Positions 4,506-38,194 of a stretch of 64,000 nt of DNA are shown piece by piece. A model generated the notes under the pieces. It was not told where the DNA came from and searched no databases. It was given only the letters and a program-made list of their open reading frames with translations. Position 1 is the stretch's first letter, and each line of letters begins with the position of its first letter. The stretch comes from Squalus acanthias (Eukaryota). The translations under genes were made by a program, and so were the position numbers. The DNA is taken from the NCBI GenBank assembly GCA_030390025.1, contig CM059427.1, positions 71,052,001 to 71,116,000 on the forward strand, given 5' to 3'.

Positions 4506-4894
4506 GCCAGTTAATTTAAGTAGTTTGGAAATCCACAGAGTTCAATGGGTAAACTGATAATTAAGAAACACACTTTTAGAAATGGAAAGCTTTATCACCA
4601 CATTTTGTGCAGGCTGCAGCCTGAGACGTGATAGATGGCGTCTTCTCATTCCTGCGCTCGTCTAGGTTACTGCATTAACGGACAACAGCCTTTGTTCTGT
4701 TGCCTACTGGGGTCCTTCACTGAAGACAGCAGCTTGCTGAGATAGATTACAAAGCCCTGGGATGTAAGGATGGCGGCGGGAAGACTGGAAGGTGAGGAGG
4801 AGTAATATCATTTTGTAAAAAAGGTCATAAGCACGACCCGAGGAATTATAATAGGAAAGGACAGTAATAGTTCTAATTGGGCAGCCGGCACTCG

Positions 4895-5224
4895 TGGAAT
4901 CCCCGAGGGGTTGGTCCTGGGAACTCTGTTGTTTAGAAGATTTATTAATGATCCTGATGGTGGTATTTTCTGTAGAATGCGTCCAAATAATGTGGGAGAG
5001 CAAAGTGTTCAAGCAGAGGGATATTGTTCAAAGAACTCTACAGTAACTGGACCTGTGAGTGACAAATTGGATTTGATATTACAAAATGTAAAATAATGGA
5101 GATTGATACTAAAATAGCAAATATGAATGAACATTGATGGGCATAATATTAAATAAAATTAAGCAATATAAGAATTGGGTATGATAGCTAATCAAGTAAA
5201 AGTGTCCTCACACTGAAAGGCAAT
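4895..5224 (+). mobile_element. Old CR1 RT fragment; continues at about 7545 after the Harbinger-type insertion
   Basis: VLGTLLFRRFINDPD resembles CR1 GSVLGPLLF..INDLD; downstream gagaatgttagga resembles the RMLG motif. Confidence 0.65.
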
Positions 5225-7761: not shown

Positions 7762-8251
7762 CAACGAAGGTTCACTAGATTGATTCCTGGGATGAGAGGG
7801 CTGTCCTATAATGAGAGATTGTGTAGAATGGCCCTATACTCTCTGGAGTTTAGAAGAATGAGAGGTGATCTCATTGAAACTTACAAGATTCTGAAGGGGA
7901 ATGACATGGTAGATGCTGAGAGGTTGTTTCCCCTGGCTGGAGTGTCTCGAACTCGAGGGCGCAGTCTCAGGATAAGGGGTAGGCCATTTAAGACTGAGAT
8001 GAGGAGGAATTTCTTCATTCAGCGGGTTGTGAATCTTTGGAATTCTCTGCCCCAGAGGGCTGTGAATGCTGAGTCTTTGAGTCTATTCAAGGCTGAGATA
8101 GATAGATTTTTGGACTCTAGGGGAATCAAGGGATATGGAGATTGGGCAGGAAAGTGGAGTTGAAGTCGATGATCAGCCATGATCTTATTGATTGGCGGAG
8201 CAGGCTCGAGGGACCGTATGGCCTCCTCCTGCTCTTATTTCTTATGTTCTT
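7762..8251 (+). mobile_element. CR1 LINE 3' fragment
   Basis: ORF QRRFTRLIPGMRGLSYNERL...NLWNSLPQRAV; ttcttatgttctta tail. Confidence 0.95.
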
Positions 8252-8356
8252 ACCCAGTGTCTATACACTTGCGTCTTCTGTACGATGAACCCTGGCTAAT
8301 TATGTTATTGACAGGTCGCACAACACCAGGTTATAGTCCAACAGTTTTATTTGAAA

Positions 8357-8398
8357 TCACAAGCTTTCGGAGCTATCGATTGCTCCTTCCTCAGGTGA
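8357..8398 (-). ncRNA. Minimal type-I hammerhead ribozyme motif (inverted copy)
   Basis: Exact reverse complement of 8555-8596. Confidence 0.8.
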
Positions 8399-8554
8399 AG
8401 TAAATTAGATACAGAATCGCCAAAGCATATATAGATAGAAAACAAAGCATGTGTACCTTACATGTGTACCTTACACTAGTGGTCTGCAATTGTAAGGTAC
8501 ACATGCTTTGTTCTCTATCTATATATGCTTTGGCGATTCTGTATCTAATTTACT

Positions 8555-8596
8555 TCACCTGAGGAAGGAGCAATCGATAGCTCCGAAAGCTTGTGA
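8555..8596 (+). ncRNA. Minimal type-I hammerhead ribozyme motif
   Basis: UCAC-CUGAGGA-A-GGAGC(AAUCGAUA)GCUCC-GAA-AGCU-U/GUGA: CUGANGA and GAAA core, 5-bp stem II, 4-bp stem I, palindromic stem III. Confidence 0.8.
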
Positions 8597-9253
8597 TTTC
8601 AAATAAAACTGTTGGACTATAACCTGGTGTTGTGCGACCTCTCAATTTTGTCCACCCCAGTCCAACACCGGCATCTCCGCATCATAATTATGTTATCCCT
8701 AACTGCCCTAGCCCAGAAGCACTTGGGTTAGTTATGCCACCTTTATTGTTGCCACCCTAACTGGGATCATCTCAGTTGTCACAAACTAAAGATCAAACCT
8801 GGCAACGTGCCTGCGCCAACCTTCCCCTGCACAGACCTGCTCTTCTCTCTGACGCTTGGGGTTGATTTCCGCTCTATTATCAGAGCTGACTGTCTTTCAC
8901 CTCTGCTTTCTAGCTGGCTGGTTTTGAGATGCCAACTTTTTGATGCCATTGATTAGCGTTTATTTGATTTCTAGCTTGGCATTCATAAAATTGGAAACTG
9001 CCACAAAGTATTCTGAGCGAAAAAAAGCAGGAATCGTACTCCCTTTTTAAAATTTTACCCTGGTTCATGTGGAACTTCCTGTAGCATTACTTATAGGCGA
9101 CTGTCAGTCAAGATTAGCAAGTGATCAACTTTGGACAACAGAAGCTGTCAAACTACCTGACCCAAGGAACAAACTGCAGCAACTTTTCAAGGACAGCAAC
9201 TTTTTTTTTGTTTGCTCTCTTTACTACAAGTTAATTTGGGACAATTTTTTAAA

Positions 9254-9856
9254 AATTCATTCTCGGGATATGGGCGTCGCTGGCATTTATTGCCGATCCC
9301 TAGTTGCCCTTGAGAAGGTGGCCTTCTTCTTGAACTGCTGCAGTCCATGTGGTGAAGGTACTCCCACAGTGCTGTTAGGTAGGATTTTTCCAGGTTTTTG
9401 ACCCAGTGATGATGAAGGAACGGCGATATATTTCCAAGTCAGTATGGTGTGTAACTTGGAGGGGAACTTGGAGATGGTGGTGTTCCCATGCGCCTGCTGC
9501 CCTTGTCCTTCTAGGTGGTAGAGGTCGCGAGTTTGGGAGGTGCTGCCGAAGAATTGCTGGCGAGTTGCTGCAATGTATCTTGTAGATGGTACACACTGCA
9601 GCCATGGTGTGCTGGTGGTGGAGGGAGTGGATGTTTAAATTGGTGGATGGGCTGTCGATCAAGCTTTGTCCTGCATGGTGTTGAGACTCATGACTGTTGT
9701 TGCAGCTGCACCCGTGAGGGCAAGTGGAGACAATTTCATCACACTCTTGACCTGTAGGTGGTGGAGAGGCTTTGGGGAGTCTGGAAGTGAGCCACTCGCC
9801 GCAGAATACCCAGCCTCTGACCTGCTCTAGTAGCTAGAGTAATAATGTGGCTATAT
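9254..9856 (-). mobile_element. Second CR1-group LINE family (Crack/Daphne/L2B-like), 3' fragment
   Basis: LNIHSLHH...AAVCTIYKIHCSNSP and ATRAGQRLGILRRV; homologous to 38562-39952. Confidence 0.85.
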
Positions 9857-34896: not shown

Positions 34897-35585
34897 ACCC
34901 CACTGCTCCTGCTCCCTTAACCCCACTCTCCCCACTGTCTCCACTCCTGATGGTGGATGGCTGGCTGTGGCTTGCTGGGCTTCTAGTGACTGACTGTTGG
35001 TGGTGACTGTAATGGTGCATTTTTGATCCATCATGAAGTAATATATACAATTTACAAATATATCAAAATCCACTTGAAAATGCTGGAAAACGGGCCCAGA
35101 TGAATGTTTACCCATAGTCTCTGCTTTGTGATGAAGGATTCCATGTTCCAATAACCCTCTGTGTGAAAATGTTTCTTTTAGCTTGCCCCTTTGTTCTGCT
35201 CATGGTAATCAAGACACTATGACCTCTTGTTACTGATTCACCAACCAATGAACATAGCCTTTCACTATTTACCCTTTCAAAACCTTTTGCCCTCCTGCAT
35301 TCTTCCTACGAGTTTGCCATGCCTGCTAATTTGGCAGATCACTAAATTTTAACATGATTTTGAAAACCTCTCTTAATCCCCCGAATCTACTTTGTTCCAG
35401 TCAAAAAGCCCCCGATATTTTGAGCCTTTTTTTTGTATTCTTGCTTGTATTACTTTAGTCAATTCAAATTTTACTCTTTCCATGGCTATATTATCCTTGA
35501 TGCGGAGATGCCGGTGTTGGACTGGGGTGGACAAAATTGAGAGGTCGCACAACACCAGGTTATAGTCCAACAGTTTTATTTGAAA

Positions 35586-35627
35586 TCACAAGCTTTCGGA
35601 GCTATCGATTGCCCCTTCCTCAGGTGA
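35586..35627 (-). ncRNA. Minimal type-I hammerhead ribozyme motif (stem II G-U variant)
   Basis: UCAC-CUGAGGA-A-GGGGC(AAUCGAUA)GCUCC-GAA-AGCU-U/GUGA. Confidence 0.8.
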
Positions 35628-35956
35628 AGTAAATTAGATACAGAATCGCCAAAGTATATATAGATAGAGAACAAAGCATGTGTACCTTACAATTGCAGAC
35701 CACTAAATTAAATCATCCTGACTATCTGCCGAGGTGTGATAAAGTTAATCAAGTCAGCCAGGAAGGTACCACATCAAAGACATAGCAAGATACAACTGAG
35801 ACAATGAGGTGTAGTCGCAGGGGTTCTAACGTGTCAAAAGCTGCCGTCTGTATGTAAAACGAAAAGCTTTAAAATTTTTACTTTTTTACTGGGAAAATTT
35901 TTACTTTTTTACTGGGAATCACATCTGTGAACAAGACAACGACGACTCGAGTCCGA

Positions 35957-36238
35957 TCACGTCATGTATCGTGACATAAACCCAAGATCCCGGTTGAGAC
36001 CGTCTTCATGAGTGCGGAACTTGGCTATCAGTTTCTGCTCGATGATTTTGCGTTGTCGTGTGTTTCTAAGGTTGCCTTGGAGAACGCTTACCCGCAGATC
36101 CGAGGCTGAATGTCCTTGACTGCTGAAGTGTTCCCCGACTGGGAGGTAACAATCCTGCCTGGCGATTGTTGCGCGGTGCTCGTTCATACGTTGTCTCAGT
36201 GTCTGCATGGTCTCGCCGATGTACCATGCCGCGGTGCA
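35957..36238 (-). pseudogene. Penelope GIY-YIG endonuclease C-terminal fragment
   Basis: CTAAWYIGETMQTLRQRMNEHR...PVGEHF...R...EQKLIAKFRTHEDGLNRD; open frame, 5'-truncated. Confidence 0.9.
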
Positions 36239-38194
36239 CCAGTAAAAAAGTTAAAATTTTCTCTCAACTATATTATCCTTCCCATAATGGGGTGCCCAGA
36301 ATTCATGCAATATTCCAAATAGGGCCTAACCAATGTCTTGTACGGATTCTTTATTACTTTCTTTTATACTAAATGCACCTTTGTATAAAGCCTATTTGGC
36401 TTTTTTATGATAGCACTTTGACATTTAGAAATCTGTGCATCTGCACTCCAATATTTCACTGTTCCCCACACTTTTAAGGATATTCCCATTCAAAATATAA
36501 TTCGATTCACTGTTTTCCCAATATATACTGCTTTACATTTCTCTGCATTGAACTGCAACTGCCACTCCTCTGCCCACTCCACTAATCTATTTTGTCCTCC
36601 TGCATTCTTCCGCCGAGTTTGCCATGCCTACTAATTTGGTATATCATGAAATTTTAACATAATTTTTCTTGTGCCTCTGTCCAAATTATTTATGTTAGTG
36701 GAAAACAAAAGGGGTTCCAATACAATCCATACCCAACCAATCTGGAAACCATAGGTTTAGCCCTATTCTATGATTTCTGTTCCCTCGCCACCTCCCTATC
36801 TATGTGACTATATTCCCTTTAATCCCATGTGCTACCTTCTTCATAGCAATTTTTTTTGGCACCTCATCAAATGCTTTTGAAAATCACTGCCTGCAACATC
36901 AATTACATTCCCTTTGTCTACGGTGATTGCCTCAAAACAATTCAATTAAAGTAGTCAAGAATGACATGCCCTTTTCAAACTCACGCTGTCTGTCTCTGAT
37001 TAGCCTATGCCTCTCCAGCTGTTCATTAATTTTATTGCCTACTCTCTGTGCCTGGTAACTTTTCTAATTTCAGTCCCATTTGTTTTTACACAGCTTCCGT
37101 TTGAATATCGATCTAGTAATGGCTTTCCCATATTCTCCACAGGTACTTTTATAGACCCGCTTTCACCTTCCTCTGTAATATATGAGGGTAAATACCATTC
37201 CTTCACTCTCAAATACAAGATGGCCCTTTCATCTCTAAGTGTTTCCACCACTTCTTTGCCGATCCTGTTGCTTATAAAGCAATTGTAAAAGAATTTGCTA
37301 TTTATTTTTATGTTGCTTGTCAATCTTCCAACCTGCCCTCTCGTCACCTTCCATTTTGCTTCCTTTTAATATTCCCCAGGTTTTTTTTTTGGTATTGTCC
37401 ATCCAATATTTCTCATACACCACATTTTTTTTGTTCTTACCTCTCTACCCATGTAATTTCAGCCTTTTAAATGTACCCCCCTCTAGTTGAATATGTTTAA
37501 TGTGTGTCTCATCTGCCTTATATTTAAATATTTCCCATTCCCGGTCCTTCATTTGATTTGCCACATTGCCAACCAATTAATTTGGGTTAGTTCTACTTTA
37601 ATATCACTGAAATTAAGCAATTCAACACCTTTATCTTGGACTATTTTAAAAATGTATCACTATTTCCTAAGTCCAGGTCACTTACTTATCCTGTGTTTGT
37701 TACCCGGAACCAGATCTACCACTGCAGCTTTCCTTGTTGGGCATGCAATGTATTGATTAAGGAAGCTGGATGTCTTTGACCACAAACTGTTGTCTTATCG
37801 TAATCTACTTTAGGATAGCTCAAGTACCCCCTGTTATTACGACTCTGCTACTACTGCAAGCCCCTAAGTTAGCCTACAAACATCCTCCTTCCATTCTTTC
37901 CAAATATCTGATACATAATGTACTCCCAATGTGCTATTAGATCACTTATTACTTCTCTTAAGAAAGATTGAATGTGGTAATGGAAGGAGCGTAGGCTTTT
38001 TTAGATCGATGGACTGAGTGGCATTTCCATCCATATCTAGTTTGTAATATTATGGTAATTCATTACATCTATGGACCTGCCCTAACTGGTACAAATCTTG
38101 TAAAGTCTGTTGTATAGTTACACTTCCAGCCCTGCTTGATGTCCTTGAAATATATAGGTGTATATTATAAAATACTGAAAACATTATTGGTTTT

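Follow-up and report, generated by a model that had tools for sequence, protein, structure and literature searches.

Here we characterized a palindromic insertion at positions 8297-8696 of a 64-kb stretch of shark DNA, referred to below as the window. The window is mostly repeats, with 32% masked by self-comparison alone, and the insertion lies next to an unrelated LINE-type repeat (7762-8252) that we take to be CR1-like and that has 11 other copies in the window. A host exon was not found when Pfam was run on 300 of the 483 unmasked stop-free ORFs of at least 40 aa, a screen that short or domain-free exons would escape. Matches among these 300 ORFs comprised four RT fragments, a Zn-ribbon (E 0.003) and a PAZ domain (E 2.7e-4). 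The PAZ match, at 4707-5027 on the minus strand, was judged spurious because no PDB chain matched it at E ≤ 1. The features of the locus are as follows.

7762-8252, plus strand: 3' part of a dispersed LINE-type repeat unrelated to the insertion, ending 44 nt before the target-site duplication, with an ORF remnant
8297-8308: left target-site duplication (TSD), 12 bp, AT-rich; its last 1-2 bases may belong to the element
8309-8475, minus strand: inverted, tail-less copy of the element end, the mirror of 8491-8644, with two private substitutions and a 13-nt duplication
8357-8398, minus strand: mirror minimal type-I hammerhead, identical to the plus-strand motif; C3 at 8394, predicted cut after 8361
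8397-8433, minus strand: mirror TATA-like and Inr-like motif, a predicted outward promoter
8474-8481: inversion junction, an 8-nt palindrome, CACTAGTG
8477-8684, plus strand: direct, 5'-truncated Penelope-like end of 208 nt, made up of part of the pLTR and the tail, without coding sequence
8520-8556, plus strand: TATAWAWR box followed 32 nt later by an Inr-like site, which puts the predicted start at A8552, 3 nt before stem I
8555-8596, plus strand: minimal type-I hammerhead, 42 nt; C3 at 8559, predicted cut after 8592
8646-8684, plus strand: Penelope-like element (PLE) "tail", 39 nt, AC-rich, present at one end only and unpaired with the other arm
8685-8696: right TSD, 12 bp

Anatomy of the insertion and its family

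The inverted arms at 8307-8462 and 8491-8646 are 156 nt long and 99% complementary. Their outer 2 nt overlap the TSD, leaving arms proper of 154 nt at 8309-8462 and 8491-8644. These differ at two positions, 8312 and 8440, and with the second copy of the element (35498-36267) as outgroup, both changes fall on the left, inverted arm. The TSD is a direct repeat, TAATTATGTTAT, at 8297-8308 and 8685-8696, for which the chance of a match at a fixed place is 2e-7. An earlier note on this DNA had described near-perfect inverted arms of about 155 bp bracketed by a 12-bp TSD, and the two mismatches and the TSD at both ends bear this out. The left arm extends to 8475 via a 13-nt tandem duplication at 8448-8473, which is likely the product of polymerase slippage at a 2-nt microhomology. 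The junction base C8476, read directly from the sequence, is unlike both the native upstream base and the continuation of the arm. The 39-nt tail (8646-8684) is predicted to pair back onto 8610-8628. The locus thus joins arms, TSD and tail to a hammerhead motif and, through the family, to an ORF with RT and GIY-YIG domains. Taken together, the 376-nt palindrome is very probably a Penelope-like retrotransposon of a very abundant family, inserted with its 5' end truncated, and its hammerhead motifs are predicted to be trapped in read-through RNA.

The family link comes from a second, longer copy on the minus strand.

35498-36267, minus strand: second family copy, with a 12/13-bp TSD, an inverted stub and a direct copy containing an ORF end, 3' UTR, hammerhead and tail
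35626-35662, minus strand: TATAWAWR and Inr-like motif of this copy, 3 nt before hammerhead stem I
35960-36238, minus strand: C-terminal 93 codons of a GIY-YIG endonuclease, 5'-truncated; Pfam GIY-YIG E 0.0047, below gathering

Its stretch 35498-35705 is identical to 8477-8684 of the palindrome at 206 of 208 positions, beyond which the copy runs for about 530 bases more, into the end of the GIY-YIG endonuclease. Sequence upstream of 8477 that resembles this continuation also appears in contigs of three of the four sequencing runs; because both the second copy and the contigs continue upstream, 8477 is a truncation point and not a unit boundary. The view of 8477-8684 as an invariant unit of 208 nt, bounded at the second copy by a TSD of its own, was discarded, since that copy continues upstream. 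From its 5' end, the second copy reads TSD, 7 nt of inverted tail-less end, 22 nt inverted from the 3' UTR, and then the direct copy. This inverted 5' part totals 29 nt in two pieces and is informative on the integration mechanism. A 23-nt tandem duplication (35871-35918) lies within its 3' UTR, and the unit recurs inverted at the 5' junction (36239-36261). The decayed LINE-type sequence flanking this copy holds a 77-nt direct repeat of 88% identity at 35285-35361 and 36590-36666.

Of 47 candidates, 35 are homologues of the GIY-YIG peptide. The best of these, P0001, is a shark record that is 87% identical and carries an RT upstream (RVT_1 E 5e-9, with DKG, YIDD and GIY-YIG). The second Cys of the endonuclease, YIG, R17, H21, H37, H43, E67 and N82 are invariant in all five aligned rows, while the first Cys of the CCHH motif falls beyond the truncation of the second copy and is present in the relatives only. 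The Penelope-like origin claimed from sequence in the earlier note is thereby supported, via this GIY-YIG end and its 87% identity to a shark RT and GIY-YIG protein. Both window copies also have the hallmarks of EN+ PLEs, namely an inverted tail-less end and a TSD (12 and 12/13 bp) at an AT-rich target. A CX4CxxC linker between RT and EN occurs in all four aligned relatives (P0001, P0003, P0017 and L002); the second copy starts after this motif. In the accessible text of PMC8557442, a CX2-5CxxC linker is assigned to Neptune and Nematis and denied to Penelope and Poseidon. Judged from the linker of its relatives, the family is likely a Neptune-type PLE, and a Poseidon label was set aside on the same CX4CxxC linker, absent from Poseidon.

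Both metagenome loci that carry a related hammerhead adjoin PLE-type RT or endonuclease fragments. These marine contigs (L001, 99-1050; L002, 1-1470) contain the hammerhead together with rearranged, partly inverted PLE RT and endonuclease fragments, which are likely eukaryotic carry-over. Separately, shark RefSeq isoforms of XRCC5, PPP1R12A-like, septin 5a, IQCK, CYP2C31-like and other genes contain this PLE endonuclease end (P0002, P0011, P0013, P0019, P0028-P0031 and P0034), reflecting either exonisation or annotation error.

Contigs matching the stretch numbered 14,183 in DNA run X1 and 8,872 in DNA run X5, and 132 and 111 contigs, respectively, depart at the tail end into unlike flanks. 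These counts and the divergent flanks indicate that the family is very abundant and that its 3' end is sharply defined. In all four runs the consensus of the loose letters past the tail, at 8685, opens with GAC, at low agreement, so that in tandem copies the tail may run up to the ATG of the following ORF. Divergence amounts to 2 of 154 sites between the arms and 2 of 208 between the two window copies, and on these low values the insertion is judged to be young. The alignment of one 660-nt X1 contig starts precisely at 8685, where the right TSD begins, and runs to 9240 with a single difference; 34 letters at one end and 70 at the other are left over and do not match the tail. If the 70 lie on the left and the 34 on the right, the contig would reach 26 bases into the repeat that ends at 8252 and 20 bases into the one that begins at 9255. 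These lengths fit an empty site, as alignment into the tail would be expected of a filled allele. Judged from the lengths of this one contig, the insertion is likely unfixed.

Because the insertion is compact, bounded by a TSD and terminated by inverted repeats, it could be read as a non-autonomous palindromic element in its own right, similar to a MITE or a retrozyme and mobilised as a whole. We regard this as extremely improbable, given that the centre at 8477 is a truncation point upstream of which the second copy and contigs in three of four runs continue, and that the inverted part of the second copy differs. Retrozymes are moreover described as head-to-tail tandems in the part of bioRxiv 10.64898/2026.07.22.740005 available to us; when the locus was examined as a non-LTR retrozyme, a tandem array of the unit was not found and the hammerheads lay on opposite strands. 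An assembly or read artefact, such as a fold-back chimera, would fit the fact that none of the contigs listed spans the whole insertion, but the exact TSD, the one-sided tail, the private changes on one arm and a second locus of like architecture make it hardly credible. A microRNA precursor was also rejected, as the best Rfam score was 66.8 bits against a gathering score of 139.7 and such matches reflect the perfect hairpin. A truncated Penelope-like insertion therefore stays our reading of the palindrome.

Hammerhead motifs and predicted RNA folding

On the plus strand, stem I of the hammerhead comprises 8555-8558 and 8593-8596 (4 bp, UCAC/GUGA) and stem II comprises 8567-8571 and 8580-8584 (5 bp), with the CUGAGGA core at 8559-8565, one extra A at 8566 and an 8-nt loop II at 8572-8579. 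The 3' part contains GAAA, the palindromic AGCU at 8588-8591 and a U as H17. Each strand has a single sense hammerhead, located 3' of its own antisense. These sequence features agree with the 42-nt motif in each arm and the predicted cut site after 8592 put forward in the earlier note. The sequence features of the minimal hammerhead (min-HHR) are all present, including the core CUGANGA...GAAA...UH, the extra base 9/10.1, G10.1-C11.1 and the palindromic 15.2-16.2, and the further claim of a minimal type-I hammerhead that needs a dimer is supported by the definition in the accessible text of PMC4209133. A loose hammerhead descriptor, applied to both strands across the full 64 kb, gave three matches, all of them copies of this Penelope-like family. 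The covariance search of the Infernal type that had been suggested came out negative, with no match to Rfam hammerhead models at gathering score in the window, nor at E ≤ 10 in 8200-8800 or 8530-8700; the motif call therefore rests on the descriptor and the published min-HHR definition.

All nine stem pairs are kept in the five aligned motifs, with 45 of 45 cells paired versus 22-44% when the positions were slid. This alignment contains no compensatory changes and one G-U change in five rows, three of which are near-identical, and given this lack of covariation, the conservation of stem pairs reflects youth as much as selection. In stem II of the second copy (35498-36267), an A-U pair has changed to G-U. 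Loop II carries an AUCGAU palindrome (8573-8578), which had been proposed as a second dimer contact. That proposal fared poorly, as such palindromes arise in 4.8% of random 8-nt loops and this one is absent at both related loci (L001 and L002). The contact was also rejected on geometry, because a stem-III dimer would carry its two loops II one at each end of a single coaxial stack, a placement that follows from the helix II/III stacking described in the available part of PMC4209133. The dimer that the palindrome favours is instead predicted to pair through stem II and loop II, leaving stem III unformed.

The fold of 8290-8700 has a free energy of -293.7 kcal/mol, versus -89 +/- 5 for shuffled sequences (z -41; 0 of 100 shuffles equally stable), which upholds the expectation that read-through RNA forms a long hairpin. 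In the folding model, the probability of stems I and II is 0.000 in both full strands, and likewise at all four transcript lengths per strand for stem II and all three for stem I. Forcing the ribozyme gives -219.1 kcal/mol versus -291.2 for the free fold, a penalty of 72 kcal/mol. Folds of growing prefixes, which are equilibrium modelling and not true kinetics, place hairpin nucleation 50-60 bases before the hammerhead core is made, and for the mirror pair at a distance of three bases from the growing 3' end, the pair probability exceeds 0.99 from early in the second arm. The model thus predicts that any read-through RNA locks both hammerheads into a 154-bp hairpin. RNAs started inside the arms escape the trap in the model, with stem II at probabilities of 0.90-0.99 and stem I at 0.02-0.42 for all seven starts. 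Read-through RNA would be long dsRNA and a generic ADAR/Dicer substrate, without a selected role. The ribozyme would serve the parent element, and the placement of the TATA/Inr motifs suggests that its normal role may be to trim about 41 nt from element RNA started there, either as a dimer or with the help of the element's own protein.

Several observations on the sequencing runs bear on this RNA. At 8525, an A>G change makes up 795/16,159 (5%) and 1,188/8,425 (14%) of summed depth in runs X8 and X9, versus 67/1.83 million and 0/202,987 in the DNA runs. This is one of 10 variant rows, the runs come from other individuals and the RNA status of X8 and X9 is a guess; a highly expressed variant copy would explain the enrichment as well as A-to-I editing does. 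The other A>G row, 8572, occurs in DNA runs too. Among 24 runs, none is recorded as RNA that contains the sequence. Contigs of X8 and X9 have zero cover of the unique flank at 8710-9240, and those of all four runs have zero cover of the junction at 8440-8466; such gaps are not proof of anything, and the animals may lack the insertion. A tabulation of shared contig starts or ends came out empty, but RNA ends are not visible in contigs. We also considered reading cleavage from summed depth, which drops roughly 25-fold on the 5' side of the cut site in X8 and X9 versus about 3-fold in X1. This was rejected because contig depth cannot rank parts of the element and other subfamilies align only from 8580.

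The earlier note had raised a kinetic switch, with ribozyme and hairpin as competing folds of a host transcript and cleavage thus set against processing as dsRNA. In its favour, each strand holds an intact motif, the 47-nt motif alone folds with stems I and II (-13.0 kcal/mol), and the A>G at 8525, commoner in the presumed RNA runs, hints weakly, at the level of the family, at editing of dsRNA. We nevertheless find the switch highly improbable. The antisense arm comes first on both strands, so that in the model the hairpin has already closed by the time the core is transcribed, and stems I and II, at a probability of 0.000, would have to overcome the 72 kcal/mol penalty; the two motifs lie on opposite strands and cannot dimerise in cis; and the insertion is likely unfixed with no host exon found among the ORFs screened. 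From what is available of the published accounts, the Schistosoma min-HHR monomer did not cleave and dimers cleaved little (PMC4209133), and the anole hammerhead needs its protein, with zero RNA-seq reads ending at its cut site (PMC11167929). The palindrome is likely an ordinary leftover, not a switch.

A different way out of the hairpin would be a pair of outward promoters, with the arms firing away from the centre to give two identical free-5'-hammerhead RNAs that dimerise in trans through AGCU and cleave. The TATAWAWR/Inr motif at 32-nt spacing has three matches in 64 kb, all in family arms (3/3) and nowhere else, and outward RNAs are predicted to lack antisense and to keep stem II (P 0.98). 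TATA and Inr-like motifs are also noted for a rotifer pLTR in the available part of PMC3846280. The pLTR promoter of Drosophila Penelope is able to drive downstream sequence, but it is TATA-less. The matches here count as a single independent motif, found post hoc, with 1.22 expected per window. The AGCU duplex is worth only -2.5 kcal/mol, and the stronger predicted dimer, through stem II and loop II (-25.3 versus -14.4 for two hairpins), leaves stem III unformed. Overall, we consider outward promoters quite unlikely. Slightly more doubtful still, and very unlikely in our view, is a composite in which the two-nick footprint of a dimeric PLE protein would double as a bidirectional outward unit, its antisense-free trans-dimers cleaving while read-through is silenced as a hairpin. 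If the outward unit were true, start-site choice and not folding kinetics would be the switch, at many young shark loci, and it would supply the missing in-vivo setting where dispersed minimal hammerheads meet a dimer partner. The trapped hammerhead of a truncated insertion remains the reading that we carry forward.

Integration route

In the accessible text of PMC8557442, an inverted 5'-truncated copy and a 30-40-bp tail are described as typical of PLEs, and the mechanism is called open. The consulted text of PMC3846280 reports for Pen2a_Av an inverted pLTR that is 37 bp shorter than the direct one, with a 9-10-bp TSD, and favours self-priming as the origin of the inverted pLTR. From the part of PMC11167929 available to us, the anole PLE protein is able to nick an AT-rich target on both strands and to extend each of them, with reverse transcription beginning at two sites, one on either side of the tail. 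In both window copies the inverted part stops at the tail-start base, to within +/-1, although its length differs greatly between them.

These shared ends, together with the published double nicking and two RT starts (PMC8557442, PMC3846280 and PMC11167929, each as far as available), lead us to lean towards two-ended priming from both target nicks over fold-back. The element protein would nick both strands of the AT-rich target 12 nt apart, and cDNA would be primed at both nicks, once from the end of the tail (8684) and once from its start (8645). The two short cDNAs would then join head to head via the 2-nt microhomology, making the inverted second hammerhead a by-product of PLE integration. 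The 7-base inverted stub of the second copy points the same way, as this outer end is most easily laid from a target nick; a later deletion could also leave such a stub. Fold-back self-priming is the alternative route, somewhat less likely in our view. The 8-nt junction palindrome fits it, following the account accessible in PMC3846280, but junction detail alone fails to separate fold-back from two-ended priming. No proposal of twin or two-ended priming for PLEs was found in the literature searched, which lay outside subscription reviews and supplements, where one may be in print.

The locus itself matters little, and the family is the useful part. As a young, abundant and likely polymorphic shark family, it offers many junctions at which two-ended priming and fold-back can be discriminated. 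Many perfect hairpins of 100-200 bp would also give sharks a heavy load of endogenous dsRNA, similar in kind to that from inverted Alu pairs.

Relation to known systems

In 2014, Cervera & De la Pena described pairs of min-HHRs that lie on opposite strands at a spacing of 100-700 bp (PMC4209133, available text), and the arrangement seen here is therefore already published and not new. Like the min-HHRs of that paper, as accessible, the motif is type I with a 4-bp helix I, the extra base 9/10.1 and G10.1-C11.1, and its palindromic 15.2-16.2 lacks a loop 3. As in the dual motifs described there, the two copies lie on opposite strands, here with 165 nt between the two C3 residues. Unlike the Schistosoma min-HHR in the same text, where helix II is 7-8 bp, helix II here is 5 bp; that text makes no mention of sharks.

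The insertion also resembles Pen2a_Av and other EN+ PLEs in the available parts of PMC3846280 and PMC8557442, in having a head-to-head inverted copy that is shorter by the tail. With EN+ PLEs in these sources it further shares a 30-40-bp tail at one end, a short TSD, a junction palindrome and a TATA/Inr-like motif. Set against the EN+ PLE insertions described there, it has no ORF between the arms and consists of two truncated ends only; its TSD is 12 bp versus 8-10 and its junction palindrome 8 nt versus 18-38.

Similar to PAc, a Poseidon element of Anolis carolinensis (Frangieh et al. 2024, PMC11167929, accessible text), the family has an AT-rich target, a hammerhead in the pLTR and a tail that is bounded by two ends and contains an AC-rich stem-loop. 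It departs from PAc, within the same text, in the CX4CxxC linker of its relatives, which is absent in Poseidon, and in having no ATG at stem II. Non-LTR retrozymes, reported in one cartilaginous fish in the available part of bioRxiv 10.64898/2026.07.22.740005, are likewise short, non-coding and PLE-derived with a type-I hammerhead. However, as described in that source, they carry two sense motifs per RNA in head-to-tail order, whereas the palindrome is head-to-head with one sense motif per strand. By the sequence features tested, the palindrome is thus classed as a truncated EN+ PLE insertion with a min-HHR motif.
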